From a virus: a stretch of 64,000 nucleotides of DNA. The stretch is taken from the IMG/VR virus record IMGVR_UViG_3300032215_000682, positions 51,637 to 115,636 of that record; one strand, 5' to 3'. How positions within the stretch are numbered: position 1 is the first letter of the stretch; every line of letters starts with the position of its first letter. The notes under the pieces were generated by a model that worked only from the letters and a program-made list of their open reading frames with translations, was not told where the DNA came from and did not search any database. Below, piece after piece: positions 1 through 64,000 of this stretch. A program made the translations under genes and the position numbers.

Positions 1-1
1 C

Positions 2-94
2 TTCATTAGTACAACCACCTAAGTCTGATTTATTATTTACATATCCTCCTTCAAATTGCAAAAGCATATCTGAAAATTTGTTTACATCTGCCAT
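2..94 (-). CDS. N-terminus of a GH108-family lysozyme (endolysin), truncated by the window edge
   Basis: Manual translation MADVNKFSDMLLQFEGGYVNNKSDLGGCTNE carries the EGGYVN..D.GG.T signature of glycoside hydrolase family 108. It lies directly downstream of the muzzle gene and is missing from the ORF track. Confidence 0.85.
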   Translation of the reverse strand, partial: MADVNKFSDMLLQFEGGYVNNKSDLGGCTNE

Positions 95-96
95 AA

Positions 97-3000
97 TTAT
101 GTTTTACTTATTGTTTGATTATTAATTTGAAATTTCATTATATATTTGTGTTGTGAATCATTATTATTAGAAAGTCTAACAATAAAAGCATCACTTCTTA
201 ATTGTTTTGTTAAAAATTCTTCTTTATAATTTAATGCTTTAGTATTAATATTTTTATAAGGAACTTCACATGTATAAGTCATTAAAGGTTGTCCTTTAAC
301 ACTAACATCTGTTATTGAATTAAATCTCCAATTATTTTCTATATTATCTACTAAAATGTCTTTAGAAAAGTGATTAATTTTTGGATAGGCAATTGATTGT
401 TGCATATCATCTTTTTTAGCTACAATTAAATTTAACTGTCCTGTAGTTTGATTTTGATTATAAATTAAAACCCCATCTAATGTTCTATCATTTACAAAGA
501 AATAATTTAACATGTCTTCATATCTTAAAACATCACATTGATATTCTATAAAATCTACAGTGTTATTAATAAATTTATCTTGTGTAACATATTCTATTAT
601 AAAAGGAAACAATTCTTCATAAAACACTTGATATGATTTGTTTGTTAATAAATGACTCCAAAGTCCTGTGCTATTTCCTGATTGAAAATATGTATTATTA
701 GAGATATAATAATTAGGAATAAAAGAATAAAAACTAATCCATTCACCATTAATAGGAGAATAAGCTAATGTCCATGATTTATTACAAAAATATCTCTTGT
801 CTTTTAAATTTATTTCTTCTCCATTTAAATAAAAAGCATTATTTTTATATTCCACTTTTCCTTTATATTGAGAATTTAAAGCATAATCAAGTTTGGTAAT
901 AAACATCCTATCATATTTATTATCCCATGTAGTTGCTATTCCTATTTTATTATAAGCATCATCAATATTAACATCTGGAAAATCTTTTCTAATACTAAAA
1001 GGAAGATGTTCTCTAAACCATGCTCTCATTTTAGGTTTATCTTTTCCTCTTGTTATATCTATTAGCTGATTTCCTCCTAATTGAAAAATAGAAGGATTTT
1101 CACTATTAACATAAAAATGTCCAAATGGTGTACTTTCAAAACTTTGATGTGTAGAACCACCAAAACCTAAATCAGATTTATAATATTCTTGAGGCTTTGT
1201 AGCAAACATATTGCCTATGCTCACTTGTTGTTGTTCTAATGATGTATTAATTGTTATATAAGCATTAAATACTTTTGTAGAATTGGTTTGTCTACATACC
1301 ACCTTATCTTGTTCTATTCCATTTAAAGCTATTAGAGCACCATCTTCTAATGGAAAATCATAATAATCATTGGCAGAATAATTAAGCCAATTAGGAACAC
1401 CTTTATTAGAATAAATTGCTCTATTAGGAAATTGATTTCTTATATAAGAAAGGGCATTTGTATAATCATTTCTAAGAATGTAATAAGGATTTTCTAAATT
1501 TTGTTTAGAATAATCAGAATTATAAAAATAATAATTATCAAATGATATTGGGTTCAAATATTGTTGAGTCCATGTTACAATATCTCCTACATAAGGATAG
1601 AAATTCTTTTCTTGATAATTTTCCCCATGTCTCATATCCACATTATAATCACTTTCACAAGCAAAATATGGAATGCCATATGAATACATTGGAAAATATC
1701 CTCTCTGATAAAACACACTACTTTCATCAACTATTGCATGAAGTTCTGGTGGTGTAAAATTAAAAAAGGCTTGACTGCCACTAGGATCTACAGGAGCTGT
1801 ATCCATATAATATTTACTAAAAGCAACATTGCTTAATAATGAATATTGGACATCTGTATTAGGCTGGTCATTTATTCTATCTTGAATAAAAAAAGGCATT
1901 TTTCTCTTTAGTCCAAAATTATTAATATATGTATCACCTCCAAATATTGTATCACATGAAGAATCTTGTATATTATTCCAATCTATTATACCACAATACC
2001 CTGTATCTACCCACTCAATATTTTCTATTGTTCCATACTGATCTGGTACATAAATTTTATTAGAAGCATAATAACTAGCTATATTAGAATATACACCTGT
2101 TTGAAGTTGATTAGAAGCTGCTATATTATTAAAAGCATCTGTTCTACTTGTATCACCTGTTAAATTTCCATTAACATCATATATTAATGCCCCATTATTT
2201 AATACCCAATCAACACATTGAAAAGCTTTAGCAGGAATAATAACATCAGGAGTTGTAGCATCATAAGCTGGAATAGAAAAGAAAATAGAACTTTCTCTCT
2301 CAAAATTATTAATTCTTACACTGGAATAATTATCATTAATTTGTATATTTCCAGGATTTAAATATATATTGTTACTAGTGACACTAATTTTTTTATAAGG
2401 CCCATTTTCTATAAAAGAAGAACTATTATATTTACCATCAGAAATATAATATATTGTAGGATTTCTAGGAATTCCAAGAGATTTAAATAAGTCTGTAAAC
2501 TCTTTAGTATATTTACCTTGATTAGTAGCAAAACCAAATCCTATACCTATTGCAAGTTCTATAGCAAATCCTACTAATGGAGCACTTGTTCCAAATATTG
2601 TTATAGGAGCTGCTGCTGATGCTGCATTAAAAGCATCTATAACTATTTCAAGAGCTGCTAACACTTCTGCAAATGTATAAGCTTGTTTAGTTAATAATGT
2701 ATAAGGAGCATGTTTCACCACTTCTACATATTCACCTCTTGATATTCCATATTGAATAGATTCAAGTTTAATAATATTTCCTAAAAATGGTTTATTAAAA
2801 CTTGTATTAGGAGAGTGAAATGTATATCTAGCATTAACATAATTATTATTTTTATAAGGGTGCTTAACATTGCTTCCTCCTCTTTTATCTAAAAGATAAA
2901 CATCTGTATTTAAATCATTATAAGAATAAGATGGATAGTATATTTTTTCAAAGCTTTGACTACCATCTAATGCTTTTATAGGCTCTCCTTTAGAATTTAA

Positions 3001-23705: not shown

Positions 23706-25367
23706 TTAATTATAGTTGTTTTGTATAGCATCCAACTCAACAAGTACACTGCGGGTAGGATCTTTTAACCATATAGAAGATTGACCTTCTGCTATCATTC
23801 TAAATCCATCTGTAGCACTTGATGCAACACCATATTTACCTGAATAAAGTCCATAAGGAGATGTTCTACCATTTATAATTGTAAATTTAGTGGCAGGCAT
23901 TCCAGAGTTTCTCACCATGAAAACATTAGCATTCTTATTAGCACCATCCATAAATTCTATAGAAGAACTTGGTGTAGCTGCATTTGTAGATTCACCATCT
24001 GTAACATCAAATATTGCAGAAGTGTAAGAATATCTACCATAAGCTCCTATTAGAGGCTCATCTGCTTTCCTAGATGTTTGTGCATCAAAAGCTGGATTGT
24101 ATTCAATTTCCACCCATCCTGTACCTGGAAGATACATTTTACTCACTTCAAAACCTGCACTAAGATTCATTCTATCACCTGATACAATACCAAGAGATTT
24201 ATTATCTAGCATCAAGCCAAATTGTGTAGCTGTTCTTTGAAGTTCTTCAGCAAAAATTCTTGTATATTCATTCACTGCACCTCTACCACCTTGCACTTTA
24301 AAATGCCTATCTTTAGGAGCAATATCAGGTCTTGAATAGAACAATGAACCAAAAGCATTCATAATAGCTTCTCTAGAATACCTAGGAATCCTATATCTAT
24401 TACCTTTTTTCATTTGGTCATACAAACCACCATTAATAAACATCTTCATACCTCTTGCACCCATAACCTCTCCAGGTTGTGCCCACATGAGTTCATTTTC
24501 TTCCATTCTAAGATATTCTTTAGCTATCATGATTTCCACCATTGAAGCCCAAGTAAGAGTACCTTTTTCTATTCCACCTTTTCCATCATTCTTACCAAAC
24601 ACAAGAGCAAACTCTTCTGATTGAGGAGACATCATAGAATTATATCTTTTTTCAAAATCTATATTCTTAGGAAGTTTCAATCTACTTGCAGAACCTGTAA
24701 TAGTGTATTCAACACCTCTCCAAGAACCAAGTTTATGAAGCAACTTCATCATTCCAGACTCTTCTACTATACCAGAGAATTGTTCTGAGAATTCATCTAT
24801 TCTATTAGACACTTTGAAGAATTGTGTTCCTGGAGACAAATAATATTTATCAAACCAAGAATTCTTTTTATCTACAGCTACAAGTTCCACTGTATATACA
24901 AAACCTTCACCCAATTGATCTCCAACTTCTCTAATAAAGAGATTTTGACCATCCCTAAAATCATATGTTATTGTATCACCTTTTTGGAATGTAGGCATGT
25001 TAGAACCATCACCAAGCAATACATCAAATGTTTGACCATCTATACCTGGTTTAATGTTTGTAACATCAGTGATGTCTTCCATCACCCTTACACCTTCAAG
25101 CTTATAAGGCATTGAGAATGTAAATTCACCATCATCACCATTTACATATATGACATTCTTTTGAAGTTCTGTCATTTTTATCAAAGGTGTGCTTATAAGT
25201 TGCATTTGATTCCATACATCTATAACACCCAAATATGTTCTTGAAATATCTTCACCCCATATATTGAATAAGTGGTTAGCATCTGAAAATATACCAGATG
25301 TTTTAAAAGCAGATTTCTTAACTACTAGGTTATTACCAAATGCACTAAAAGTAGGATATTGTGCCAT
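23706..25367 (-). CDS. Major capsid protein
   Basis: 553 aa, downstream of portal and scaffold. KPGIDGQTF, E.ELMW, GGLYDQM and C-terminal IWLKDPTRSVL match crAss-like MCPs. Confidence 0.85.
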   Translation of the reverse strand: MAQYPTFSAFGNNLVVKKSAFKTSGIFSDANHLFNIWGEDISRTYLGVIDVWNQMQLISTPLIKMTELQKNVIYVNGDDGEFTFSMPYKLEGVRVMEDITDVTNIKPGIDGQTFDVLLGDGSNMPTFQKGDTITYDFRDGQNLFIREVGDQLGEGFVYTVELVAVDKKNSWFDKYYLSPGTQFFKVSNRIDEFSEQFSGIVEESGMMKLLHKLGSWRGVEYTITGSASRLKLPKNIDFEKRYNSMMSPQSEEFALVFGKNDGKGGIEKGTLTWASMVEIMIAKEYLRMEENELMWAQPGEVMGARGMKMFINGGLYDQMKKGNRYRIPRYSREAIMNAFGSLFYSRPDIAPKDRHFKVQGGRGAVNEYTRIFAEELQRTATQFGLMLDNKSLGIVSGDRMNLSAGFEVSKMYLPGTGWVEIEYNPAFDAQTSRKADEPLIGAYGRYSYTSAIFDVTDGESTNAATPSSSIEFMDGANKNANVFMVRNSGMPATKFTIINGRTSPYGLYSGKYGVASSATDGFRMIAEGQSSIWLKDPTRSVLVELDAIQNNYN

Positions 25368-26644: not shown

Positions 26645-26881
26645 TTATAACCAAATGTATTCTTCTTGACTTATCCATACTTTAATTCTATTAGAATTAG
26701 ACTCTTTTATTTTTTTTATAGTTTCTTCAGAATGCTTATACCATTTTCTATTTTCTACTATTAGATTTTTAGTAACATCAGACATTTTTCTTCCTTTATT
26801 ACCATGTTCTAATAATTTCTTATTTGGATGGCTTCCTTGCTTTTGCAATTTGTTTGTCTGCTTGTATTCTTTCTCTTTCAA
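26645..26881 (-). pseudogene. NUMOD3-only remnant of a homing endonuclease
   Basis: KGRKMSDVTK and KHSEETIKKIKES are NUMOD3-like motifs, with no nuclease domain. Overlaps the portal 3' end. Confidence 0.5.
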
Positions 26882-29519
26882 GGGTGGCTTTAATTTTAGA
26901 TTCTTTTTCTTTCAAATTAAGTTCTTTATCTTTTAGTTTGAGTTTGTCTCCTTCAAGTTTATTCTTCTTATTTTCAGCTTCTCTTTGTAAAGCAAGTTCT
27001 CTAATATGTTTAAGTTTTTCAAACTCTAATTTCTCAGCATCAAGAGATTGATTAGCAACATCTTGTATAAGAGCACCATCTTTAGTGTAGCCTGTAGCTT
27101 TTATTTCAGCTTCTCTAATTTTAGTTTCTCTATCAAGTTGCTTATTCATATTTTCATTTTCTCTAGCTTTTTCAGCCTCATCAGCAGCAACTTTCAATTG
27201 AGCATCTTGCATTTCTTTTTGTTGACTCTGCATAGCTTGTTCATTTTGATTAAGCTCACTTTCAGCTTGTTCTAACATCTTCTGAAGATCTTTAACACTA
27301 TTTGCAGCCACCATAGAGACAAGTTTACTCATTGGAAGCTTAGTGGTATTATTATTTATTGCAAGTTGTCTAATAGCTTCTAATTGTCTCTGAGCCTCTT
27401 GTGAATTAATTATATTAACACCCAAGTCTCTAAGCATTAAATCTGTACCATTAACTTTAATAAATGATTTACCAAGATCTGATGTAACATAAGACATTGT
27501 AATATCATCTTCTCTTAAAGCTACAAATTGAGCTATATCAAGATGCATTTTAAGCTTTCTTTTCTTATAATTATAGAATTTTTCAAAATAAGATTCTGTT
27601 TGAGCATAAGAGTTATTAACAGCTTGTGTTGTACCTGTAGCTGTTTCACTAGCTTGCACTTGTCCTGCTCTTTGTGGTGTAATTCCTATTTGCATATAAG
27701 CTTGTTGTTCTACAAGCATAGCAAGATTTATAAGAGCTTGTACTTTATCATGTTCTGACATATCCACTTGTTGAAAGTGTGCAAAGTTAGAACCTTGTGT
27801 ATTTTGAGGTCTAGCATCTACAATACCAAGCCCTAATGATTTAGCAATAGTCATAAATTTTTGAGCACCTTCTTCACTTCCCCAATCTTTTAATGAAGGA
27901 ATTATATTCACATCCATTAAAAAGAATTTACCAAGATTTTTTTGTGCTATTTCATATGCTTGATTATAAAGCATATTATAAAAGATTTGATAGGGCTTGA
28001 GCAAATCTACTAAAGCCATACTCCTACCATTTCTATTATTAAATATTTGTCCACAAACAGGAAGTTTAGAATTAAAAGGATTGTAATCACCTTTAAATTG
28101 GAATTCATTAGGAGCTATATCTAAATATATAGCCATTCCTTTCCTCTTTTCTTGATCCATATTGTAATTAGCATTAATTTTAATGCCTTTCCAAGTTTGA
28201 GGTGCCCATGTCCAACATATTGTATTAGGCTCATCAGAATCTCTAAAAGATTTATCTACTATTTCTATATCAAATAATTTAGGATTGAAATTCTCATCTA
28301 CTATATGTACTATAGGCTCTCCTGTTTGTTCATCTAATAGAATAAGCTTACCAATTTTTCTTTGAGATCTCCAATAAGCTTCTGTCACTTGAACTAAATC
28401 TCTTTGTGTAAAATAGTGATTAGAGCCATATAATAAATTATTTTCATTAGCTGCATCAAGAGAAGGAATACCTGCAAGAGGAAGTCCTGAATGTGGATCA
28501 AATCCTAATGTATTCACTTGACTAGCAAAATCTCTATACCCATCCCAAGGATACATTGTAGCATTAAAAAATTCTGTATAAACATCTTCAGATGTACCTT
28601 TCTTATAATATTCTGGATAGAGGCTTTCTATTTCATCTTGAGTCATTTTCCATCCATATCTATCTATTATTTGAGCTTTAGATATAAAAAACACTCTTCC
28701 TATAAAATCTCCTTCTTCTAAATATCTTACTTCAGGACTATAATGAAAGAATGTATTTATTGGATTCCAATTCTCAACATCATATCCTGTAGATGTTAAA
28801 TAATAATGTGCAAAACATCTATCTGCCACTAAAACATCTTCAAATTGTTCTTGTTCTTTTTCTCTTATATAAAGCTTCTCTGTATCATTAAGAATAATAC
28901 TCTCACCCCATGATTCAGCAGCACTTCTATAGTCATATCTCATGTATTTTTCAATAGACTTAGGTGTTAGCTCTTGTTCTTTCTGTTGTAAATCTTTTTG
29001 ATAAGCATCTGCTTCTTCTTGACTTTGAAAGTCTTTTTTATTAACATCAACACCTTGTCTCTGAAGTTTCATCATCACTTCTTTATGCACTTCTCCTTGC
29101 ATATAAGATTGTAACATTTCTGTTTTAGTTCTAAGGAATTCAGAATCTGCTTCATTGCCAGAAGCACTCACCCTAAATATATCAGGTCTTTTTATAAATT
29201 CTCCCACTAGAATATTAACAGCTTTAGATGTAATATCATAATGCTTTAAATATTTAGGAATGGAAAATTCTTGAGCAACAGTGCTAGACAAATCTGCTAT
29301 ATCTTCTTTATCAAAATAATGTTCAGCAATAAATCTGCCTTTGATTATTTCATAATTTTCTTTAAGAGCAAGATTTTGAACAAATTGTATTCTGCCTATG
29401 CTCTCTAATGAATCCATACAGTCTTTACCCCACTTTCCCTTGTCTTGTAACTTTCTTTTTAAAGGTACTTGTTGTGGCGGAAGTTGAGCGTTTATACTTT
29501 TGTTTATATTATTTAACAT
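26820..29519 (-). CDS. Portal protein
   Basis: 899 aa after the terminase. HYDI....N.L.GE..KRP, KPYQIFYN, GITPQR.GQ...ETATG and a coiled-coil C-terminus. Confidence 0.9.
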   Translation of the reverse strand: MLNNINKSINAQLPPQQVPLKRKLQDKGKWGKDCMDSLESIGRIQFVQNLALKENYEIIKGRFIAEHYFDKEDIADLSSTVAQEFSIPKYLKHYDITSKAVNILVGEFIKRPDIFRVSASGNEADSEFLRTKTEMLQSYMQGEVHKEVMMKLQRQGVDVNKKDFQSQEEADAYQKDLQQKEQELTPKSIEKYMRYDYRSAAESWGESIILNDTEKLYIREKEQEQFEDVLVADRCFAHYYLTSTGYDVENWNPINTFFHYSPEVRYLEEGDFIGRVFFISKAQIIDRYGWKMTQDEIESLYPEYYKKGTSEDVYTEFFNATMYPWDGYRDFASQVNTLGFDPHSGLPLAGIPSLDAANENNLLYGSNHYFTQRDLVQVTEAYWRSQRKIGKLILLDEQTGEPIVHIVDENFNPKLFDIEIVDKSFRDSDEPNTICWTWAPQTWKGIKINANYNMDQEKRKGMAIYLDIAPNEFQFKGDYNPFNSKLPVCGQIFNNRNGRSMALVDLLKPYQIFYNMLYNQAYEIAQKNLGKFFLMDVNIIPSLKDWGSEEGAQKFMTIAKSLGLGIVDARPQNTQGSNFAHFQQVDMSEHDKVQALINLAMLVEQQAYMQIGITPQRAGQVQASETATGTTQAVNNSYAQTESYFEKFYNYKKRKLKMHLDIAQFVALREDDITMSYVTSDLGKSFIKVNGTDLMLRDLGVNIINSQEAQRQLEAIRQLAINNNTTKLPMSKLVSMVAANSVKDLQKMLEQAESELNQNEQAMQSQQKEMQDAQLKVAADEAEKARENENMNKQLDRETKIREAEIKATGYTKDGALIQDVANQSLDAEKLEFEKLKHIRELALQREAENKKNKLEGDKLKLKDKELNLKEKESKIKATLERERIQADKQIAKARKPSK

Positions 29520-29526: not shown

Positions 29527-31620
29527 TTATTTTATTCCTGTAAAAGGAGAATTATTATATTTTCTTTTATTTTCACTAAAAGGATTATTTATTTTTTGAC
29601 TTTCCATTCCTATAAATGGTGTTGTGATATGTCTTTTAGGAATATAAGTTTCACTTTTTCCAATAGAAGCTACATCAAAATTTGTTAATGGTGTTGCTAT
29701 ATCTAAGTATCTTGCTGCTGTTAAACAATGCCCAAAACCAATGATTCTATCATAGTTTCCATCATGCACACCTTTATTACTAGAAGATTTACCCTTATAT
29801 TCTATCATTTCTTCAAGAAGCATTACATCTGGAATTCTACAACATCCCATTTTTATTACTTCTTCCCCATCTTTATCATACATGTATATTTCTTCTTTGG
29901 TGTATTCCACCATAATATTCATGTAATATTTTTGATTAACTGTTGTAGCAGCAAGTCCTTTATTTCTTTTAGCAAATGTTAGAGGATTTATTTGTTTAGC
30001 AAGTTCTTGGGATTCTAATAGAAGATGATCTTTATTTTTTAAATAAAAATATTGTATAAGAGTTTTATCTTCATTCTCTGGAAGTCCTAGAGCATTATAA
30101 TATTCACATACATCTACACAAAGTCTATGAAAATCTTTCACTTCTTTACATCTTCCTGTAAAAGAACAAACAACACTATTTTGATATTCTCCAAGAGGTG
30201 TATACATTCTTTTAAAAACATATATACTTCCTAAAGAGTTTATTTTATCACTAGATTCATTTTCATTATAAGGGTCAATTCCTACAACATAAGTTCCAAA
30301 TGGTAGTCCTTCTATTGGATGCTCATATATAACTACAGGAGCTTCTTTAATATCTTTAGGGCCAACAGGAAATTTTAATATTGGTTTTAAATTAGATTCT
30401 TTATATTCTACTTTATTATTTTCATCTCTATATAATTGTACACATAAAGGTTCATAGTGTTTTTCTAATTCATTTTTATGACCTTTAATAGCATCAACAG
30501 GAAAATTGTTATTAGAATCTGAAAGGAAAACATCATCTACTGTAAGTGGGTAGTACATCTTCCACTTGTGGTACATTGCTGTATCATTAGAATTTAAAAA
30601 TGCATCAAGTTCTTTTTTTATTGTTTCTCTAGCTAATACTTTATCAGATATTTTTATAGTGGTAATCCATAATTCTGAATCTTTAGGTATTTCTAATAGA
30701 ACACTAGTGTCAAGCAGGTGTTGAGCAAGTGTTGTTATATACTTACAATCACTTCTGTATTCTCCTGATAAAAATATACCTGTCACTCTACCATCTTCTT
30801 GTACTTCAGAAATTAGATTATGAGCATCTGGATTAAAGAATAATTGTTTAGCATCAAAAGCATTTTCAACATTACCTCCTGTACCCATTAGCATTGGAAT
30901 ACAAGTCCATCCAAATTCATTAAGCATTGCTGGTTTAGAACCTATAAATGCTGAAAGAAATTCTGCCTTACCTATTTCATCCCATATATTACATTTAAGT
31001 CTTGAAACACCAGCAGCCTTTTCTGTACTTTTACCTCCTGATGTATTTCTAATCACATATTGAGAATACACATCATTATCATTATTCTTTCTTTTAACTC
31101 CAAGTAACACCCTCTCATCACTCCAATCTCTTGTAATCCTTGGTATTCTAAATGGTTTAGAACAATTTAATAGACCATAATCAAGAGAAGCTGTTAAGTT
31201 ATTAAGGTCATCTTTACTTGTTCCCATTAAAAGATTTTGACCTCCTTTAAATAATATACCAGATCTACCTGCATAAGAAGATTGTACTGTCGTCTTACTG
31301 AATTGTCTAAGGCCCATTATTCCTATACCTTTTCTTGTTCTTTCAGCTTCTAATAGAATGTCATTAAACTTTAATTCATTATCTCTAAAAGTAGGTGTAA
31401 TAGTAATGGGTACAGGTTCTCCCCAATCAGAAAGTTTAGAACCTTCTATCTTCCAATGATTAAGATGCCAATAAAGCCATCCTGACATTTGCCATCCATC
31501 AATATTAATTCCTCTCTCTACTTTTCTTCTTTCTTCATTCCAGAATTCTTTATATCCAACATCATCTGGATGCCAGGGAATTGTTTTCTCATCCATGTGG
31601 ATGAACATTTGTACATTCAT
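29527..31620 (-). CDS. terL: Terminase large subunit
   Basis: RQFSKT Walker A-like motif, DEIGK Walker B, GTGG, nuclease GIDPY and GNYDRI. Confidence 0.9.
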   Translation of the reverse strand: MNVQMFIHMDEKTIPWHPDDVGYKEFWNEERRKVERGINIDGWQMSGWLYWHLNHWKIEGSKLSDWGEPVPITITPTFRDNELKFNDILLEAERTRKGIGIMGLRQFSKTTVQSSYAGRSGILFKGGQNLLMGTSKDDLNNLTASLDYGLLNCSKPFRIPRITRDWSDERVLLGVKRKNNDNDVYSQYVIRNTSGGKSTEKAAGVSRLKCNIWDEIGKAEFLSAFIGSKPAMLNEFGWTCIPMLMGTGGNVENAFDAKQLFFNPDAHNLISEVQEDGRVTGIFLSGEYRSDCKYITTLAQHLLDTSVLLEIPKDSELWITTIKISDKVLARETIKKELDAFLNSNDTAMYHKWKMYYPLTVDDVFLSDSNNNFPVDAIKGHKNELEKHYEPLCVQLYRDENNKVEYKESNLKPILKFPVGPKDIKEAPVVIYEHPIEGLPFGTYVVGIDPYNENESSDKINSLGSIYVFKRMYTPLGEYQNSVVCSFTGRCKEVKDFHRLCVDVCEYYNALGLPENEDKTLIQYFYLKNKDHLLLESQELAKQINPLTFAKRNKGLAATTVNQKYYMNIMVEYTKEEIYMYDKDGEEVIKMGCCRIPDVMLLEEMIEYKGKSSSNKGVHDGNYDRIIGFGHCLTAARYLDIATPLTNFDVASIGKSETYIPKRHITTPFIGMESQKINNPFSENKRKYNNSPFTGIK

Positions 31621-37255: not shown

Positions 37256-37578
37256 TTAAAATATATTTTGTATTTTCAATTAGACATAAGAAGCCCTTAC
37301 ACATTTAAGTGCTTTTTGTTTTTAATTTAGATTTTCATACTACCAGGTGTCTTACTTATAACCACATTTGCATGTTTTCCTTTCTGTCCACTTATTGCTT
37401 CTTGCTTTTAAAAGAAGTAGGAAATCCTGTTTCTTATATCTAAACCATTTTTGTCACTATTGGAGAAAATCAATTTCAACTATATTTCTATGTCTACTCT
37501 CCCAATCCAACTTCTGAGCTACTATTTAATAGCTGATAGAAATTATTCCTAAAGTCAAAATAATTATCTGTGACTATA

Positions 37579-37610
37579 CAAAGATAATATATGTTTTTGA
37601 CATTTGCAAG
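37579..37610 (-). promoter_or_regulatory. Bacteroidota-type promoter
   Basis: Minus strand CTTG-N20-TATCTTTG. Confidence 0.55.
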
Positions 37611-37649
37611 TTTTTTACAAACTTTAACATATTATTATTTTAGTGTCTG

Positions 37650-37701
37650 CAAATATAAACTATTAATTTGACATTTCCAAATGTCTCATAAAATTATGTG
37701 A
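37650..37701 (-). promoter_or_regulatory. Consensus Bacteroidota promoter with palindromic operator, heading the structural arm
   Basis: Minus strand TTTG-N20-TATATTTG. TCATAAAATTATGTGA at 37686-37701. Confidence 0.7.
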
Positions 37702-38140
37702 AAACACTGAAAACTCTCTTTTATCTATTTAACAAATTTTATGTTAATTTATTTTAACATTAGAGCAAAATATTTTTGTTTATATAGTATATTTTTGACC
37801 AGAGGATTTTTAATTTTTATTAATTCTAAAATCTAAATAGAACTTCCCCAAGGTGAAAAGTTTCTTTGAACAGAGGAAACTTGTTTACTCAATCTATTAT
37901 GTATATAATACATAATAGAGAATATGATAGGTGAGTTTAAAAATAACCCATTAGAGACACTTTTATTTAAAATACACCCTCCTATACCACTTAGCCTATA
38001 TTAAGCCCCCTATACTAGCTTAAAATTTGTTTTATGTGTGTTTTATAGTAAACCCAGATCCAAAAAAGACCCACACCAAATCTTGAGGAGCATCTATGCC
38101 CCCTCTATCTATTATTCATTCATAAAAAATTCAGACAAAA

Positions 38141-40390: not shown

Positions 40391-40475
40391 GCCTCCATGA
40401 TGAAAAGGTAGACATGAAAGATTTAAAATCTTTTTTCCCTAAAAGGAAGTGTTGGTTCAAATCCAACTGGAGGTA
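40391..40475 (+). tRNA. tRNA-Leu(UAA)
   Basis: Acceptor GCCTCCA/TGGAGGT, anticodon arm AAAGA-TTTAAAA-TCTTT, long variable arm, T arm GTTGG-TTCAAAT-CCAAC. Confidence 0.9.
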
Positions 40476-41240
40476 CTATTAATTAATTTAAAAACAAAAT
40501 AACATGTTTAATATAAAAGAAAAACTTGCAGTAGTGTCTATTATTAGCAATGTGTCTCCTGAATCTAAAAAAATTCAACAAGAAATCATTGATGAATTTG
40601 AAAGAATTCAAAAAGAAAATGAGAAATTAAAAATTTTAATTGATTTATCTAATATATTTTGGATAACTAATTGATTTTCATTAAATTATTAATAGAAATT
40701 AGTGTTGATTGATGTACATAAATTACATTCCATCAATAAAACTCTTACAAAATTTCTATTTAACATAATATTATTTACAGAACACTCTAATAACAAATTA
40801 ATTTGTTAAAAAATTGTTAAAATATACAAATCATGCTACAAACCATCTTACTAATATCTCTAATTTGTAATGGAATATTTATTTCTTTTAATGAAGAAGG
40901 TATGATATTTTACAAAATTGGAAAATATTTAGAACAACATACAATAAACATATTGAGAGAGTATAATGAGGGAAGGGTAGCTTAAATTCTATAATAATAG
41001 CTATTTAGGAAATATCATATATATTAGTAATTATATTTTCTCATATCTTATTCTTGCAAGATAAAAAGTTAAGCCTGATCAGCTTAATAGAACAGATTTT
41101 TATTGAAATTAGCAGGCAAAACTTATAGCACTAACTATAATACCTAGCTGTAGGGTGTATTCCAATGATACAATCTAATACATAGTTTTTATGTTCATTT
41201 TTTAATTAATTGTCTCATTCATTATAAATGCCTCATTTAT

Positions 41241-41314
41241 TACTTCTTAGTTCAATTGATTAGAGCATCTGACTGTTAATCAGAAGATTATTGGTTCAAA
41301 TCCAATAAAAATAG
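41241..41314 (+). tRNA. tRNA-Asn(GUU) with degenerate acceptor stem
   Basis: Anticodon arm TCTGA-CTGTTAA-TCAGA; D and T arms intact. Acceptor TACTTCT/AAAAATA has two C-A mismatches. Confidence 0.7.
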
Positions 41315-41345
41315 CATTATTTATTAACACACAAAAAACACATTT

Positions 41346-42676: not shown

Positions 42677-42752
42677 CTTTCCATAGTTCAATTGGATAGA
42701 ATATATTACTTCTAATAATATGATGGAGATTCAAATTCTCCTGGAAAGACCA
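42677..42752 (+). tRNA. tRNA-Arg(UCU), CCA encoded
   Basis: CTTTCCA/TGGAAAG-A-CCA; TATTA-CTTCTAA-TAATA; GGAGA-TTCAAAT-TCTCC. Confidence 0.9.
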
Positions 42753-44224: not shown

Positions 44225-44621
44225 GGGGGTGAGAAGAATAGATTAGATTGATTAGTTAAATAATTAAGCAAGTGAATGATATTTTACACTTTAAAAATTA
44301 ATATCAAACAATAAATGCAACAGAATTGTCTGCCTTTACCTTTGATGATGCAATGAATTTTGTATCTCAGGATGAGCTTGTAGAAGCTGCTATATAAGAA
44401 ATTATATTGCTGTTCTTGGAAACAGAAGTCTACAAATATAGCTTTTCTTATTTACTTAGAAATAAGATGGTGGAGCACAATCAATATTTGGTTGTCCTAT
44501 TTTTATTAATTTAGTAAAATTAATTATTTGGAATACTAGAATAGTATTATCCTAAGCTTATAATAAATTATTTAATAAACCTTTTTAAGACCTGGCTAGC
44601 ATTATGCCAGCACCTCCACCA
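44225..44621 (+). ncRNA. ssrA: tmRNA (transfer-messenger RNA)
   Basis: GGGGGTG/CACCTCC-A-CCA acceptor with a G3.U pair. Helix TTAAATAATT/AATTATTTAA. Resume context ATAAAT-GCA and tag ORF 44317-44397. 397 nt. Confidence 0.88.
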
Positions 44622-44719: not shown

Positions 44720-45862
44720 ATGAATTTAAAATCAAAACTAAACAACTTTTTATTCAATAAGAATAAATATAAAGAACATGATGAAGCAATTATAATATCT
44801 TGCTTTTTTAATCCTCAAAAATCTATTTATAGAATAAATGCTTTTAATCAATTTTATGAATCAATTAAACATCTCAACCATCATATAGTAGAATGTACTA
44901 TTGGAAATGATATTAGGCAATTAGATACTTCTAATAAAAATATTTCACATGTAAAAACAGATGTTTTATTGTGGCATAAAGAATCTCTTTTAAATAAAAT
45001 TATTAAAACACTTCCTGCTAAATATAAATATATTCTTTGGATAGATGCTGATGTAATATTTGAGAATAAAAATTGGATGATAAATGCTGTTGAACAACTT
45101 CAAAAGAATAATATTATTCAATTATTTTCAGATTGTGTACATTTAAATCAATATGAAACTCCTAATAACTTAAATTCTGATTTTAAAGATCAATGGAGTA
45201 AAAGATCATTTCCAATTAATAATAAAAGAATATGGAATTCATTTGCTTATAATTGGGTGTTTAATAGAATATTGGCAAAATCTGAAAACTATGATATACA
45301 TGGACATGTAGGATTTGCTTGGGGAGCTAAAAGAGAAGTATTAGAAAAATGTCCTTTATATGATAGAGCACTAATTGGTGGGGCAGATCATATAATGGCT
45401 CATGCTTGTGTAAATCAAATTCCTTGTTCTTGTATAACAAAATCTTTTACAGATGATATAGATGAAGTGAGCAAATGGTCTAAACAATTCTATTATGCTT
45501 GTGAAGGTAAATTAGGAGTTGTAAGTGGTACATTATATCATATTTGGCATGGAGATATTCAAAAAAGAGAATATTTAAAAAGAATTAAAGAGTTTACACC
45601 TCAAACTAAGCATATTACTAAAAAAGATAATAATGGTTTATACACTACAACTAATAAACAGGCTTTACATTATGTAAATGATTATTTTGATAGAAGAGAA
45701 ACAGGACATGATAGTGATTTTCTTACATCAATGGTTTTAGGATATATAACAGATATGCCTTTTATAGGTAATAATACATTAGGAAGTATGATAGGAGCTG
45801 AATTGAGAGATGCTTCCAACAATAATTCTACAAATATAGTAGATTTTCAAAATTTTTCTTGA
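44720..45862 (+). CDS. GT-A-fold glycosyltransferase-like protein
   Basis: WHKE.LLN, WIDADVIF (DxD), GFAWG, GGADH and HIWHG motifs. Confidence 0.6.
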   Translation: MNLKSKLNNFLFNKNKYKEHDEAIIISCFFNPQKSIYRINAFNQFYESIKHLNHHIVECTIGNDIRQLDTSNKNISHVKTDVLLWHKESLLNKIIKTLPAKYKYILWIDADVIFENKNWMINAVEQLQKNNIIQLFSDCVHLNQYETPNNLNSDFKDQWSKRSFPINNKRIWNSFAYNWVFNRILAKSENYDIHGHVGFAWGAKREVLEKCPLYDRALIGGADHIMAHACVNQIPCSCITKSFTDDIDEVSKWSKQFYYACEGKLGVVSGTLYHIWHGDIQKREYLKRIKEFTPQTKHITKKDNNGLYTTTNKQALHYVNDYFDRRETGHDSDFLTSMVLGYITDMPFIGNNTLGSMIGAELRDASNNNSTNIVDFQNFS

Positions 45863-46526: not shown

Positions 46527-46598
46527 GGAGTTTATAGTTCAATGGTAGAATAATTAATTGTGGTTTAATAGATTTATGTTCAACTCATAATAAACTCC
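46527..46598 (+). tRNA. tRNA-His(GUG)
   Basis: G-1 plus GAGTTTA/TAAACTC-C; ATTAA-TTGTGGT-TTAAT; TTATG-TTCAACT-CATAA. Confidence 0.85.
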
Positions 46599-46617
46599 CT
46601 TAAAAAATTAAAATAAA

Positions 46618-47256
46618 ATGAAACAAAAAATAATTGGAATTCCTGCTTATTCTGGTAAGGAAATCTTTGGATGTGGATTGGGCTACTTGGATTGGATTAG
46701 CCAATTTGGTATTCCAAGACTTATATTTCCTAAAGAAGAATTTGTTAAAGGATTGGATATGTTATTTCTCCCAGGAGGCCCTGATCTTAATCCCACTTCA
46801 TACAATGCTATACCTGAATTCTACACAAACTCTCCATGTATTCATAGGCAATTCTTTTATGATATAAGACTTAAAAATTATATTGGAAAGGTTCCTATAT
46901 TTGGAACTTGCCTTGGGTTTCAAATGTTGAATTGTTTTTTTTCAGGAAAACTTGAGCAGGATATTTCTCACTACGTGGACAAAGATGGATGTCATGAAAT
47001 TTATGACATGGAGTATAAATTAATAAAAGCACTACCAAAAGATAAAGAAGGAATTAAAGTGACAAGTTCACATCATCAAGGATTTAAAATAAATAATCTT
47101 GGAGAAAATCTAACACCATTAGCTCAAAGTGCAGAAGGATATATAGAAAGAATGGAGAATACACATTTAAATATAGCAGGAGTGCAAAGTCACCCTGAAA
47201 GATTAGAAGATGAATGGAGTGTAAATAAAATTAATGAATTTTTAAAAATTAAATAA
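46618..47256 (+). CDS. Class I glutamine amidotransferase / peptidase C26
   Basis: LPGGPD, PIFGTCLGFQ (nucleophile Cys), S.HHQG and GVQSHPE (His-Glu). Confidence 0.88.
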   Translation: MKQKIIGIPAYSGKEIFGCGLGYLDWISQFGIPRLIFPKEEFVKGLDMLFLPGGPDLNPTSYNAIPEFYTNSPCIHRQFFYDIRLKNYIGKVPIFGTCLGFQMLNCFFSGKLEQDISHYVDKDGCHEIYDMEYKLIKALPKDKEGIKVTSSHHQGFKINNLGENLTPLAQSAEGYIERMENTHLNIAGVQSHPERLEDEWSVNKINEFLKIK

Positions 47257-47513
47257 TGCTTACAATAATAATTAATAATGATATATGGAAAATGCCTGAT
47301 GATGAATCTTGGCATATATTTTTAATAAAAGTTGCTCCAACTGAATCACAAGTTGTATTTATGAGATGTGCTTGTAATAATAAATCTGTACATTGTACAT
47401 CATCTGAAAAACTAGCACAAGAAATAGTGCAAGAAATTACAAAAGGTATAATGGAAGGAAAAACTATTATAAATATTCAAACAAAAGAGAATTTAATTGT
47501 TGAAACTAAATAA
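47256..47513 (+). CDS. Hypothetical protein
   Basis: 85 aa, translationally coupled. Confidence 0.55.
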   Translation: MLTIIINNDIWKMPDDESWHIFLIKVAPTESQVVFMRCACNNKSVHCTSSEKLAQEIVQEITKGIMEGKTIINIQTKENLIVETK

Positions 47514-47519
47514 TAATAA

Positions 47520-48362
47520 ATGATAAGAACTGTTATTAAATACACAGATAATAAAATATTATTAAATGATGCTGAAGTGTTTGAAACTTCTAAAGAATTA
47601 TTTCCTGGTATATATGAAATAGAAACTGACACTTATGGGGCTTTTAAAAATTTTGTATCATTAGAAATACCTAAAGCATTTCCATTGATGCCCTCAGATG
47701 AATTACAAAACTTAGAAGACTATATAAATAATTTTTTATCTGATGATTATGAAAATTTGTGTAAAGAAGCAAGAATTTTAAAAAAATCAGGTATATTATT
47801 ATATGGTAAGCAAGGAATTGGTAAATCTAATTATATTAATTATATTATAAATAAGTGTCTAGAAGAAAAACAAGCATGTATTTTTAGTTGCACTGGTTTA
47901 AGAGATGTACAACAAGTAAATGATAAGTTAAAGGAATTAAGAAATATACAAAATACTTTGTTTGTAGTGTTATTAGAAGAAATGGATGAAATATTAAACA
48001 GCAATGCAAATCCAGAAGGTACATTAAAAAATTTTATGGATGGTATTAATAGTGTTGATAATTGTTTATTTTTAGCTACAACTAATTATATAGATAAAAT
48101 ACCAAAATCTTTAACTGAAAGACCTTCTAGATTTAAGAAAGTGTTGGAAATAAAACCAACAGAAAATATAGAAGAGTTAAAAAAATGGCTTACTATTACA
48201 TATAAAAATTTTATACCAGATTTAAGTAATGAAGAATGTGAACATTTACATGATATGTGTATAAATAAATCTATTGATGAAATTAAACATATTATTATAG
48301 ATTATAAAATGGGAATTGAAAATTTAGAAAAACCAAAAAAACTAGGATTTAAAAAACAATAA
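47520..48362 (+). CDS. AAA+ ATPase
   Basis: GILLYGKQGIGKS, LEEMD, ATTN and RPSRF. Confidence 0.85.
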   Translation: MIRTVIKYTDNKILLNDAEVFETSKELFPGIYEIETDTYGAFKNFVSLEIPKAFPLMPSDELQNLEDYINNFLSDDYENLCKEARILKKSGILLYGKQGIGKSNYINYIINKCLEEKQACIFSCTGLRDVQQVNDKLKELRNIQNTLFVVLLEEMDEILNSNANPEGTLKNFMDGINSVDNCLFLATTNYIDKIPKSLTERPSRFKKVLEIKPTENIEELKKWLTITYKNFIPDLSNEECEHLHDMCINKSIDEIKHIIIDYKMGIENLEKPKKLGFKKQ

Positions 48363-48365
48363 TAT

Positions 48366-49226
48366 ATGATAAAAATAACTAATATAGGATGTGATCCCGA
48401 ATTTTTCATTCAATCTCAAGGAAAACATATTTGTGCTATTCCATATTTAGGAGGAGCATGTAAAGAACTTCTATTTCCAATGATGGAAAATAACATAATT
48501 AAAGAAGGATTTTTCTTTTGTCATGATAGAGCTTCTGTTGAATTTAATGTACCTCCTACAATGGATTTTAAGACATTTAGAGATCAATTAAATTATGCTA
48601 AACAGTTTATATTGCATCTGGTTAATAATGACTACAATGGCCCTAAAATTGAAATCTCAGAGGATGCTAGTGCTTTCTTTAATTGGGATGAACTAACAAA
48701 TCCTAAAGCTTTAGAAGTGGGATGTCATCCATCATGGAATGCTTGGACTAATTCTCAGAATAAATTAACAAAAGATTTAGAAAAATCTAATTTTCAGTGT
48801 GCGGCTTTTCACTGGCACCTTGAATGTGATTTTGGTTGTGATGATAAATTTCATCTCATGATGGCTTGTATTAGAGCATTTGACTTATTTTTAGGTGTTC
48901 CTTCTGTAATGATGGATAATGACTTATGGAGGAAAGATTCAGGCTATGGACTTGCAGGTCAATTTAGAGAAATGTTAGATAAAAACAGATTTGAATATCG
49001 TGTTTTGTCTAATTTTATTCTATTTGATGATGTAGCATTAGAATTTATGTGGAATCAAATGTTTAAAGCTATTGATTATGTTAATGAATTTGATATAATT
49101 ACAGGTGAATTAGGAGATAGAATACAAAAATGTATTAACACTTCTGATAAAATATTAGCTTATGAAATTTGTAAAGAGTTTAAAATTGAAATTCCTGTAA
49201 ATGAAAAAGTATTAACTAATGAATAA
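48366..49226 (+). CDS. phiEco32-like COOH-NH2 ligase type 2
   Basis: IGCDPEFF, D...VEFN.PP, GC.P..NAW, H.H, YG.AG.FR and EYRVLSNF. Confidence 0.8.
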   Translation: MIKITNIGCDPEFFIQSQGKHICAIPYLGGACKELLFPMMENNIIKEGFFFCHDRASVEFNVPPTMDFKTFRDQLNYAKQFILHLVNNDYNGPKIEISEDASAFFNWDELTNPKALEVGCHPSWNAWTNSQNKLTKDLEKSNFQCAAFHWHLECDFGCDDKFHLMMACIRAFDLFLGVPSVMMDNDLWRKDSGYGLAGQFREMLDKNRFEYRVLSNFILFDDVALEFMWNQMFKAIDYVNEFDIITGELGDRIQKCINTSDKILAYEICKEFKIEIPVNEKVLTNE

Positions 49227-49778: not shown

Positions 49779-49914
49779 TGAAAAATTTTAAAGATTTTTT
49801 CAGAATAATATTAGTGCTATGTGCAACATATTTAATGTTACATAATATTGATGGTTGGGGATGGTTGATATTTACTTTAATATTAACTTTTTGAATTTAA
49901 TTAAACAATTCTCA

Positions 49915-51717
49915 TTGGAGAAGATAGTATATGACATTGAAAGTTATAAGAACTTCTTTTGTTGTACATGTCTTAATTTAGAAAATAATGATAAACAAAT
50001 ATTTATCATTGATGAAAAAATTAACAATTATGAACAATTAAAGAAGTTCTTTTTTCAAAAATGCTTTATTGGTTATAATAACAAAGGATATGATGATGTT
50101 ATTATTAATTACATTTTAACAGAAAAAATAATGTGTCCTTATAAAATAAATGATTTTTCAAATTTAATTATTCAAACAAAAGATAATTATGAAGAAATTA
50201 AATATTATAAGTATAATAATAATTATAAAAGTGTTGATTTAATGACACATTTGTTTTCTAAAGCTCTTAGAGTAGGGCTTAAAGAATTAGAAGTGAGTAT
50301 GAACTATGAAAATGTACAAGAACTTCCTATAGCTTATGATGCTATATTAACAGAAGATGAAAAACAACAGATTATAGAATACAATTTAAATGATGTTTTG
50401 GCTACTAAGATGTTAGCTGAAAAATGTAAAGATTCTTTAAAACTTAGAGAAGCTATTAAACAAGAATTTGGTTTAGATTGTTATTCAAAAGATGGTGTTG
50501 GTATTGGTAAAGATTTACTTTCTAAATTATATTGTGAAAGATTGAATTTAAAATATAAAGATATAAAAGAATTAAGAACTTATAATCAAGAAATTAAATT
50601 TAAAGATATAATCAGTGATAGAATTAAATTTTCTTCTAAAGAATTTAATAATTTATTAAAAACACTAATAAATACAAATATAACAACAACTAAAGATGCT
50701 TTAGATTATAAAATATTATATAAAAATGTAATGTTTGTATATGGGACTGGGGGTTTGCATAGTAAAGATGGACCTGCTTATATCATACCTAAAGATGATG
50801 AAATATTACAAGATCTAGATATTTCTAGTTTATATCCAAGTATATTAATTGAATATGGCTTTAAACCAGCTCATTTAAGACCTGAATTTTTAGAAATATA
50901 TAAACAAGTAAGAGATGATAGAATAAAAGCTAAAAAAGAAGGAAATAAACTTATTTCAGAAACTTATAAATTACTTTTAAATTCTAGTTATGGTTTATTA
51001 TTAAATTCTTATTCATGGCTTTTTGATACAAAGTCTGCAATGGGGATCACTATAAATGGACAATTATTTTTAACAATGTTAGCTGAAAAACTATTAGATA
51101 ATAGTATTCAAATAGTATCAATTAATACAGATGGTATAACATGTTTATTTAAAAAATCTCAGTTAGAACAATATTATCAAATATGTAAAGAATGGGAACA
51201 ACTAACAAAATTGGAAATTGAATATACAGAATATCAAAAAATATTTAGAAGAAATGTTAATACATATTTTGCTTTATTAAAAAATGGAAAAGTAAAAGAA
51301 AAAGGAGAATTTCTTACTACTCCAGTGTTAGGTAAAGGATATAATTCCTTTATAATTCCAATAGCTTTAAAAGAATATTTTATTAATAATATTCCTATTG
51401 AAAAAACAATTGTTTCTCATAAAAATATTTATAATTTCTGTAATATGCAAAAGATTGATAAGAAATTTAAAGTAGTATGGAATAATAAAAAACAACAAAG
51501 AATTAATAGATATTATGTTTCTAATAAAGGAGCATATTTGTATAAAATTGATGGACAAAAAACAATAAATATGTTATCTGGATGGGGTGTTCAGATATTT
51601 AATAAATTTGAATATAAAGAGAATTTTGAAGAATATGATGTTAATTATAAATATTATATTTCTGAGACAAATAAAATATTAAATGAAATATGTCCTAAAC
51701 AATTAAATTTATTTTAA
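49915..51717 (+). CDS. polB: Family B DNA polymerase with 3'-5' exonuclease domain
   Basis: YDIES, GYN..YDD, YNLNDV; D.SSLYPS, K..LNSSYG, NTDG. Likely TTG start at 49915 (ORF track gives 49855). Confidence 0.9.
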   Translation: MEKIVYDIESYKNFFCCTCLNLENNDKQIFIIDEKINNYEQLKKFFFQKCFIGYNNKGYDDVIINYILTEKIMCPYKINDFSNLIIQTKDNYEEIKYYKYNNNYKSVDLMTHLFSKALRVGLKELEVSMNYENVQELPIAYDAILTEDEKQQIIEYNLNDVLATKMLAEKCKDSLKLREAIKQEFGLDCYSKDGVGIGKDLLSKLYCERLNLKYKDIKELRTYNQEIKFKDIISDRIKFSSKEFNNLLKTLINTNITTTKDALDYKILYKNVMFVYGTGGLHSKDGPAYIIPKDDEILQDLDISSLYPSILIEYGFKPAHLRPEFLEIYKQVRDDRIKAKKEGNKLISETYKLLLNSSYGLLLNSYSWLFDTKSAMGITINGQLFLTMLAEKLLDNSIQIVSINTDGITCLFKKSQLEQYYQICKEWEQLTKLEIEYTEYQKIFRRNVNTYFALLKNGKVKEKGEFLTTPVLGKGYNSFIIPIALKEYFINNIPIEKTIVSHKNIYNFCNMQKIDKKFKVVWNNKKQQRINRYYVSNKGAYLYKIDGQKTINMLSGWGVQIFNKFEYKENFEEYDVNYKYYISETNKILNEICPKQLNLF

Positions 51718-58703: not shown

Positions 58704-58707
58704 TATT

Positions 58708-62503: not shown

Positions 62504-62680
62504 ATGGAAACAACTAAAGAAATAAAATGTTCTTGTAAAGACGAATGGCAAGATAAAATATATGGACTAGGAAGAAGACTTATGAATGCTTTTGGAAAAC
62601 CTCATAAAGGATATAGATGTACAGTGTGTGGAAAAGAAAACACACAAAATGAAAAATTTCCAAAATTAAATTCTAAATAA
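62504..62680 (+). CDS. Small Zn-ribbon protein (58 aa, not in the ORF track)
   Basis: METTKEIKCSC...QDKIYG.G.R..N......YRCTVCG. Confidence 0.6.
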   Translation: METTKEIKCSCKDEWQDKIYGLGRRLMNAFGKPHKGYRCTVCGKENTQNEKFPKLNSK

Positions 62681-63271
62681 TGTATATTTTAAAGAAAACA
62701 AATGACAATAAATACAGAAAAAGTAAAACAATCAAATTTATTTAAAATATTAGACTTAGCAATAGAAAAAGGATTTACATTTCCTGCTAAAAATACAACA
62801 CAAATATATTTATTTATAAGAGAATGGCTTGAAGCACAAGATATTTTTATTGTAATTAAAAAATATGAGGGAATGACAAAACCTTATTTACATGAATTAA
62901 GAATTGGCAATAGAGTGGTGACACCTACAGCAGTTGATTCTTGTGAAACAGCTAAACTTTCTGTAGAAAAAGCCATTTTATATTGTTTAAATCAAAAAGT
63001 GTTTGCTAATGATAATAAATAAATTTATACTAGAATATGAAAGTAGTGTTATGGAAGAGGGTAATGAATATTTACCAATTTTAACATCCTTATCTAAAGA
63101 AGATTTAGTGATATTTATTCAAAATAATAATAAAGATATTAAGTTTTCAGGGCCTTGGGAGACAGGATTTATTAAAGAGTTTAATAGACATCTCAGTAAA
63201 TATGAGATAGATAATTTAGAAAAGTTTTTATTTACATTAGATGAATGGTTTGATAAAGAAAAAATTAAAAT

Positions 63272-63919
63272 ATGAATGAATTAGAACAAAGACTTTCTCC
63301 TTATATTGAGGAAAAATGGCTTAAATTTCTTGTTCCATTTTTTAATGCTCATCCAGAAATATTTAAAACACTTTCTGAAAGAAAAACTAAATGTAAAATA
63401 GTTCCTGAACAAAAAGATATGTTTAATGTTTTTAAATATACACCATTTGATAATGTAAAAGTTGTTATTATAGCAGATACTCCATATAATGAATTAATTA
63501 ATGGAAAAATAAAAGCTAATGGACTTGCTTATAGCTTAGACAATAGTTTATATATTTCTAAAAGTTTACAGAAAATTAGAGGTGAGATAGAAGATGAAAT
63601 TGCACAAGGACAGCCTATTAATTTTAATACAAATTTAGAACATTGGGCTAAGCAAGGAATATTATTATTGAACACATCATTAACAGCAGAATTAAATTGG
63701 AAAGAAGCTCATATTTATTTATGGAAACCCTTTACAGAACATGTTATTAAAACATTAAATGAATATAGCTCTGGTGTAATATATTGTTTGTGGGGAAAAA
63801 ATTCTGAACAATATAGACATTTAATAAACAAAAATAATTATATTTTAGAAGATAAATATTTTTCAAGAATTAATGAAATATTAAAAGAAAATAATAAAGA
63901 TAAGATAGAATGGATATAG
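63272..63919 (+). CDS. Uracil-DNA glycosylase family 1 homologue with degenerate active site
   Basis: F..TPFDNVKVVI, WAKQGILLLN.SLT, W.PFT and LWG present; GQDPY reads ADTPY and HPSPLS is absent. Confidence 0.8.
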   Translation: MNELEQRLSPYIEEKWLKFLVPFFNAHPEIFKTLSERKTKCKIVPEQKDMFNVFKYTPFDNVKVVIIADTPYNELINGKIKANGLAYSLDNSLYISKSLQKIRGEIEDEIAQGQPINFNTNLEHWAKQGILLLNTSLTAELNWKEAHIYLWKPFTEHVIKTLNEYSSGVIYCLWGKNSEQYRHLINKNNYILEDKYFSRINEILKENNKDKIEWI

Positions 63920-64000
63920 AAATAAAACATGATGATGAGAATAAATTTAAGAATTATTTTTATGACAGTACAAAAGCAAGACTTGATGCAATAATGTGTC

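Follow-up and report, generated by a model that had tools for sequence, protein, structure and literature searches.

Why should a long stretch of phage DNA do almost entirely without a single dinucleotide, CG, in its genes, its spacers and its structural RNAs alike? The stretch that raises this question (hereafter the window, 64,000 bases) covers positions 51,637-115,636, i.e., the second half, of the 115,636-bp virus record IMGVR_UViG_3300032215_000682 (hereafter G000), whose ends overlap by 123 bp and which was taken as a complete genome (116 kb). Its gene content points to a crAss-like phage (Crassvirales, in the broad sense). A first-pass annotation, made from the letters of the window, had noticed the shortage of CG and had explained it by strong selection, for instance from a CG-directed host restriction or defence system, or by deamination of methylated CpG. 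Our analysis favours, with a probability of about one half, the reading that CG is kept out of G000 by an ongoing selection, exerted by an activity that reads CG on the phage DNA.

Results

The window (27.08% G+C) holds 29 CG, against ~1,170 expected, which gives a strand-symmetric odds ratio (observed/expected, O/E) of 0.025, and the other dinucleotides checked are not depleted (GC 1.12, GG/CC 1.19, TG/CA 1.15). These values agree closely with the first-pass annotation, which had estimated about 30 CG where about a thousand would be expected at roughly 27% G+C, had called GC, GG and CC common, and had listed CG positions that proved right to within one base (CGs of the window include those at 8202, 14104, 19956, 23693, 23752, 29478, 29489, 43720 and 58325). 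Over the whole of G000, 53 CG were counted for ~2,100 expected, so that ~97.5% are lost, and even the densest 5-kb stretch contains at most 6 CG.

The loss remains when the expectation is corrected for position-specific base composition. Indeed, CG is missing at codon positions 1-2 (14 observed, 516 expected), at positions 2-3 (8 for 501), at the junctions between codons, positions 3-1 (26 for 410), and in intergenic DNA (6 for 125), the corrected O/E staying between 0.016 and 0.06 at every codon position and between genes, far from 1. Together with the tRNA counts given below, these figures bear out the earlier statement that the purge runs through the whole window, RNA genes included. The flanking bases do not matter either: all ten NCGN classes lie at 0.00-0.08 of expectation, non-palindromic classes being as low as palindromic ones, and no flanking context is common to the 53 residual CGs, whose NCGN classes simply track base composition. 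In all purged genomes, the trinucleotides that contain CG and their reverse complements (ACG/CGT, CCG/CGG, GCG/CGC and TCG/CGA) are depleted to the same degree on the coding strand. Genes without homologues in relatives are purged (0.028) like core genes. The density of residual CG is lowest in the minus-strand block of structural and RNA-polymerase genes (genome 22019-88891; 0.017) and rises 2-3-fold in the plus-strand modules for replication and accessory functions (genome 1-21765 and 88892-115636; 0.037-0.048; binomial p = 0.002).

This indifference to context bears directly on the idea that the purge is the sum of many ordinary restriction-site avoidances, in which a free erasure of CG would pre-empt every CG-containing site of a shifting set of host restriction-modification systems. 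About one third of all 4- and 6-bp palindromes contain CG (our own count), and G000 does avoid classical palindromes, with observed/expected counts of 0/28.5 for GATATC, 0/17.4 for CAGCTG, 0/10.6 for GAGCTC, 0/8.4 for CTGCAG and 1/9.7 for CTTAAG; similar avoidance is found in the cultured Bacteroides phage crAss001, which is purged of CG as well (GATC 1/306, CTAG 2/325, GGCC 0/62), and hundreds of methylation motifs occur in species of the Bacteroides fragilis group (PMC10333322). However, ~70% of the expected CGs fall outside 4-bp palindromes and are equally purged, and even the most strongly avoided 4-mers without CG are only ~2-fold low in G000 (GATC 108/234, 0.46), compared to 40-fold for CG. 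In addition, avoidance was almost entirely confined to orthodox Type II sites in a survey of ~4,000 viruses and did not extend to Type I or IIG sites (PMC6286503). Orthodox sites are 4-8 bp long and usually palindromic, which does not describe a two-base word lost equally in all ten NCGN classes, and some relatives purge a three-base word, TCG. Cumulative avoidance of ordinary sites is thus an unlikely explanation, although it has part of the evidence on its side.

Within genes, CG has been written out silently and according to the neighbouring base. Arginine, described earlier as almost entirely AGA/AGG, is encoded by AGA 907 times, by AGG 103 times and by CGN 14 times (AGA/AGG in 1,010 of 1,024 codons), and C-ending codons (NNC) account for 1,435 of 12,985 codons (11%) before a base other than G, but for 26 of 4,481 (0.58%) before G. 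When synonymous codons were shuffled with the proteins and the codon usage kept, 404 +/- 16 junction CGs were obtained, against the 26 observed. The protein itself keeps its arginines: the terminase large subunit (TerL) contains 4.0% Arg in G000 and 3.5% in Leptolyngbya phage Lbo-JY46, its ten invariant Arg residues are all encoded by AGA/AGG in G000, and the gene has 1 CG where the Lbo-JY46 orthologue has 40. GC shows no depletion at silent positions of G000; note that GC was dropped as a decisive control, since Ala codons force it and make its full erasure impossible. CG is the sole self-complementary dinucleotide that can be erased without amino-acid change: Arg has AGR codons, NCG codons have NCH synonyms and all C-ending codons have a T-ending synonym, the other self-complementary dinucleotides being forced (GC by Ala, TA by Tyr, AT by Ile and Met). 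Because the code permits this complete silent removal, weak per-site selection acting in very large phage populations can erase CG.

The same rewriting speaks against a sequencing or assembly artefact, in which chemical conversion or miscalls at modified CG would have created the shortage. Nothing was found in favour of such an artefact; frames as long as 4,378 aa run uninterrupted, AGR codons stand at the conserved arginines, and the purge recurs in metagenomes of independent origin as well as in the finished genome of a cultured phage, so that this explanation can be dismissed for practical purposes.

Structural RNAs are purged like the genes. The four tRNA genes (Leu-TAA, Asn-GTT, Arg-TCT and His-GTG), on which ARAGORN and Rfam concur, jointly contain 0 CG for 7.5 expected from their own composition (26-37% G+C), and all four carry TTCAA and none TTCGA in the T-loop, as read in the first-pass annotation. 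TTCAA is a legitimate T-loop variant, and one such tRNA would not be odd, but all four sharing it is unusual; unpurged relatives retain TTCGA in 20 of 22 tRNAs (Cellulophaga phage phi17:2) and in 14 of 17 (Lbo-JY46), with ~3 CG per tRNA, and crAss001 retains it in 10 of 23. The tRNA-Arg(UCU), which had been linked to the forced use of AGA, is real and fits that usage, but it is also a common phage tRNA in AT-rich genomes. As for the tmRNA proposed between the tRNA genes, its quoted sequence GAATAGAT, its G3.U acceptor stem and its encoded CCA are all present without any CG; however, its full-length alignment to Rfam RF00023 reaches 13.7 bits (E 0.004 in 1.2 kb), below the gathering threshold of 47, and ARAGORN reports no tmRNA, so that it is retained as a candidate and not as a member of RF00023. 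It should be noticed that a CG-free and AT-rich tmRNA may merely score badly against the RF00023 model.

Relatives of G000 were gathered through portal and TerL in viral and metagenome contigs, and their CpG O/E forms a continuum from 0.011 to 0.76. The window clade, found through at least 57% identity in TerL and at least 46% in portal and made of contigs from several metagenomes, displays values of 0.025-0.13, whereas its sister clade, including Lbo-JY46, displays 0.45-0.76. The TerL tree places G000, with full support, beside G001 (O/E 0.117 over 129.8 kb) and the G002 backbone (0.06); the values for two further fragments of the clade are 0.125 and 0.08. G003, a distant phage (TerL 32% identical, 121 kb), contains 26 CG (O/E 0.011), and since its neighbours on the tree score 0.22-0.67, its purge must be independent. 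Moreover, close relatives can differ two-fold in CpG O/E, which indicates that the purge changes quickly. Among cultured phages, crAss001 contains 87 CG in 102,679 bp (O/E 0.028) and Cellulophaga phage phi14:2 has an O/E of 0.46. The comparison with other Crassvirales, to which the first-pass annotation had pointed, thus sets the window clade, G003 and crAss001 apart from the sister clade, and the CG purge is a lineage trait that has arisen more than once.

Several observations were made on these relatives in passing. In one of them (L039, IMGVR_UViG_3300049491_000418) and its neighbours on the TerL tree, it is TCG/CGA that is purged (ACGA 0.01, GCGA 0.00, TCGA 0.00) and ACGT stands at 0.43. 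In G001, the purge of CCG/CGG exceeds that of the other contexts by a factor of two to three. The G002 contig (IMGVR_UViG_3300034111_001103, 169 kb) is composite: its bases 1-41,000 have normal CpG (O/E 0.4-0.7) and the rest is purged, with a sharp boundary at 41-44 kb. None of the genes of the window phage has a homologue in the 41-kb block (loci L110, L111, L093 and L094), which brings its own Terminase_3 together with an SNF2 helicase and three methyltransferases, one of the N4/N6 class and two of the C5 class. Either the assembly is chimeric here, or a second phage-like element has become attached to a crAss-like genome.

If the host itself were nearly free of CG, the phage could simply match it; phages tend to resemble their hosts in dinucleotide content, as stated in PMC11282364. 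The first-pass annotation had named an equally depleted host as the finding that would overturn its reading, and this was examined on the cultured analogue, where crAss001 scores 0.028 and the resident Bacteroides thetaiotaomicron plasmid p5482 scores 1.19; by this proxy, the host does not share the depletion. The plasmid comparison stands for crAss001 only. As for the host of G000, protein atlas searches with the GT11 enzyme and the endolysin returned viral clusters only, a plasmid search with the tRNA-Arg gave no match, and the sole match among genome contigs was a phage-like contig in an Acetivibrio metagenome-assembled genome, with a CpG O/E of 0.55. Close relatives also differ several-fold in CpG O/E, and the 41-kb block joined to G002 keeps 0.54, a weak argument given that the contig may be a chimera. 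We know of no bacterium with a CpG O/E near 0.02. Altogether, mimicry of the host appears very improbable.

Mutational decay, in which a CG-specific cytosine methyltransferase of the host or of a co-resident element would drive CG to TG/CA through deamination of 5-methylcytosine, corresponds to the second cause named earlier. The six-frame searches with PF00145, PF01555 and PF02086 (C5, N4/N6 and D12-class methyltransferases) were negative in G000, G001, G003 and crAss001, and the methyltransferases of G002 are confined to its separate 41-kb block and are nearest to the M.HaeIII type, not to M.MpeI. A mild excess of TG/CA does exist (1.12-1.15 in G000, 1.12 in crAss001), and the CpG-poor Mycoplasma penetrans with its M.MpeI is a bacterial precedent, as far as it is cited in PMC11282364. 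However, such an excess is missing from G002 (0.99) and slight in G003 (1.04), silent selection yields the same products as those that make up the excess in G000, and Bacteroides plasmid DNA has a CpG O/E of 1.19. The change from CGN to AGR requires a C-to-A transversion, which is not deamination. Under deamination of 5-methylcytosine, vertebrate CpG O/E equilibrates at ~0.2; values of 0.01-0.03 would require ~40- to 90-fold hypermutability, beyond what this process provides, and by our own rate estimate it cannot reach an O/E of 0.02. The deamination proposed in the first-pass annotation is thus backed by no methyltransferase in the purged phages searched, and decay of this kind has only a slim chance of being the cause.

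Phage identity and neighbouring genes

The features of the window are collected in Table 1. The assignment of G000 to the crAss-like phages follows from its capsid, portal, terminase and tail proteins, its primase and two giant open reading frames (ORFs), which match crAss001. PHROGs profiles recognise the portal (phrog_6547, E 3e-122), TerL (phrog_6681, E 2e-65), the capsid protein and the DNA polymerase; BLASTP against crAss001 matched G000 proteins to gp32 (the major capsid protein, MCP), gp20 and gp19, and tblastn with G000 queries matched many Crassvirales records. The giant ORFs (3,212 and 4,378 aa) both match crAss001, and the larger one (genome 32349-45485) also matches phi14:2 gp66, the catalytic subunit of the virion RNA polymerase (E 1e-26). 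The closest cultured relative is the unclassified Lbo-JY46 (portal 41% and TerL 40% identical), and G000 is a phage of the virulent type.

Table 1. Features of the window (window coordinates).
Feature	Position	Strand	Remarks
Window-wide CG purge	1..64000	.	29 CG vs ~1,170, O/E 0.025; residual CGs without common context
Major capsid protein homologue	23706..25367	-	crAss001 gp32, phrog_35737; one CG (23752)
Portal protein	26820..29519	-	phrog_6547, E 3e-122; two CGs
Terminase large subunit	29527..31620	-	2,094 bases, one CG
Divergent intergenic region, 885 bp	37256..38140	.	between minus- and plus-strand gene blocks; 0 CG vs 15 expected
tRNA-Leu(TAA)	40391..40476	+	0 CG; T-loop GGTTCAAATCC; 37% G+C
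tRNA-Asn(GTT)	41241..41315	+	0 CG; TTCAAAT T-loop
tRNA-Arg(TCT)	42677..42752	+	0 CG; reads AGA, the codon replacing CGN
tmRNA-like candidate	44225..44621	+	0 CG (~8 expected); G3.U acceptor stem, encoded CCA
tRNA-His(GTG)	46528..46599	+	0 CG; TTCAACT T-loop; 26% G+C
DNA polymerase	49855..51717	+	phrog_1252; within the plus-strand replication module

A Pfam scan of forty non-structural proteins of G000 found exonuclease VIII-like PD-(D/E)XK, HNH and endonuclease VII-like proteins, MazG-like, primase, UDG-like and endolysin proteins, several glycosyltransferases, and an ATP-grasp, amidotransferase and amidoligase cluster that G000 shares with phi14:2 and Lbo-JY46; no DNA methyltransferase was among the proteins so identified. 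This cluster (genome 520-6268 and window 46618-49226; ATP-grasp, class I and class II amidotransferases, amidoligase and COOH-NH2 ligase) sits at both genome ends and reaches 47% identity to phi14:2. Four or five glycosyltransferase genes (GT1, GT2 and GT11 types) lie at genome 14160-21381 and window 44720-45862 and may act on sugars of the host surface or on DNA. A DUF6915 protein of 129 aa (genome 19150-19539, plus strand) has counterparts in G002 and the distant G003 at 50-52% identity, which far exceeds the terminase identity of the phages (32%) and suggests transfer or strong conservation.

Discussion

Our results sustain the part of the first-pass interpretation that invoked selection against CG: the rewriting is silent and context-dependent, it includes the RNA genes and the divergent promoter region, it extends over the clade and recurs outside it, and the arginine content is kept. 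The named causes fared less well, as no CG-reading nuclease was identified for the proposed host restriction or defence, and no methyltransferase that could underlie deamination was found in the purged phages. We infer that selection rather than mutation maintains the purge, and that its agent acts on DNA. In the proposed mechanism, each CG that the proteins permit to be removed would be silently written out (CGN to AGR, NCG to NCH, and NNC to NNT before G), with spacers and RNA genes rewritten likewise, at a low cost since the code allows it without amino-acid change. The phage would most likely meet the driver during infection, as an activity that recognises a bare CG in duplex DNA or in phage DNA entering the cell; a host defence system or nuclease is the most probable candidate, and the process would amount to motif avoidance reduced to two bases. 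Because of the reverse-complement symmetry and the purged 885-bp region, an agent that recognises duplex DNA, or CG regardless of its flanks, is preferred to a flank-dependent reader of transcripts.

Several points weigh against this explanation. No CG-reading protein was found in the genomes searched, none is known to us, and we know of no bacterial enzyme that reads only CG. A CG-directed nuclease would also threaten CG-rich cells and plasmids unless these were protected or exempt, and our analysis documented no CG methylation in such hosts. Among viral and metagenome contigs, no near-identical relatives of G000 were found in which selection would show as polymorphism (the closest portal is 76% identical). 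Finally, BLASTP of G000 against purged (G001, G002, G003, crAss001) and unpurged (Lbo-JY46, phi14:2) phages returned no purged-specific gene, a result that nevertheless points weakly to an outside cause. Note that a Dps-like protein, the DUF6915 protein and an unknown 192-aa protein had been considered as causal genes, but they were partial candidates only, none being specific to all purged phages.

The symmetry argument also has its limit, since CG is identical on both strands and a reader of CG alone in RNA would fit as well. A host ribonuclease or sensor that reads CG in transcripts, by analogy with ZAP, would meet every transcribed CG in the RNA, on both strands alike, in a genome that is nearly wholly transcribed, and the purged tRNAs and tmRNA candidate agree with it. 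In contrast, the divergent 885-bp region is expected to be partly untranscribed and still lacks CG, host mRNAs are full of CG, and to our knowledge no CG-specific bacterial ribonuclease has been described; such selection on RNA seems improbable.

The agent could also be the phage's own weapon, i.e., a phage nuclease that would cut host DNA at CG and to which a CG-free phage would be immune. This would solve the problem of self and non-self, since CG abounds in host and plasmid DNA, and G000 does encode HNH, endonuclease VII-like and PD-(D/E)XK nucleases. However, these are ordinary homing or recombination types, the BLASTP comparison found no gene shared by purged phages and absent from unpurged ones, and crAss001 is reported to coexist with its host in the long term and not to destroy it, which makes a phage weapon a rather remote explanation.

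Selection against CG by an activity that acts on phage DNA thus remains the reading that we favour. On a larger scale, and with somewhat less confidence than even odds, we may suppose that a discrete two-base activity directed at CG, be it a host defence or a phage weapon, acts in several bacterial phyla and drove many unrelated phage lineages, including crAss001, to erase CG. A 40-fold, context-free loss of a single dinucleotide far exceeds the restriction-site avoidance described for phages, and as crAss001, which grows on the culturable commensal Bacteroides intestinalis, shows the same trait, the question is open to direct experiment. Identifying the agent might bring to light a novel type of defence or counter-defence and might account for some of the peculiarities of crAss-like phages, while the CG purge would provide a compositional marker for the prediction of host or lifestyle. 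In our literature search, whose coverage is incomplete, no publication connected a depletion of CpG, or of dinucleotides in general, with crAss-like phages or with crAss001.

Comparison with known systems

In vertebrate-infecting viruses, CG is removed silently under host sensors that read CG (ZAP and TLR9), and we know of no bacterial counterpart of these sensors. The CpG suppression of these viruses (reviewed in PMC10500230) therefore resembles the purge of G000 in its silent removal of CG, but differs from it by its eukaryotic sensors and by a weaker depletion. In Mycoplasma penetrans with M.MpeI, as far as it is cited in PMC11282364, the shortage is likewise prokaryotic and specific to CG; there, however, a methyltransferase is present and mutation was proposed, whereas no methyltransferase was found in G000 and the depletion is far deeper. 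The nearest cultured case is crAss001 (MH675552), which has an O/E of 0.028, in which no methyltransferase gene was found either, and which has MCP, portal, TerL and virion RNA polymerase in common with G000; it belongs to a distant family (TerL 21% identical), keeps TTCGA in part of its tRNAs, also purges GATC, CTAG and GGCC, and has a known host. Restriction-site avoidance in non-temperate double-stranded DNA phages (Rusinov et al. 2018, PMC6286503) is similar in that short words are silently eliminated, with no methyltransferase in G000, and in that G000 also eliminates classical 6-bp palindromes; the difference is that the word lost from G000 has 2 bases and is lost with all flanks, non-palindromic ones included, whereas the published sites are orthodox Type II sites of 4-8 bp. 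Restriction-site avoidance is thus the closest described phenomenon and the CpG suppression of vertebrate viruses the closest analogy, and neither of them covers a two-base, context-free purge in a phage.

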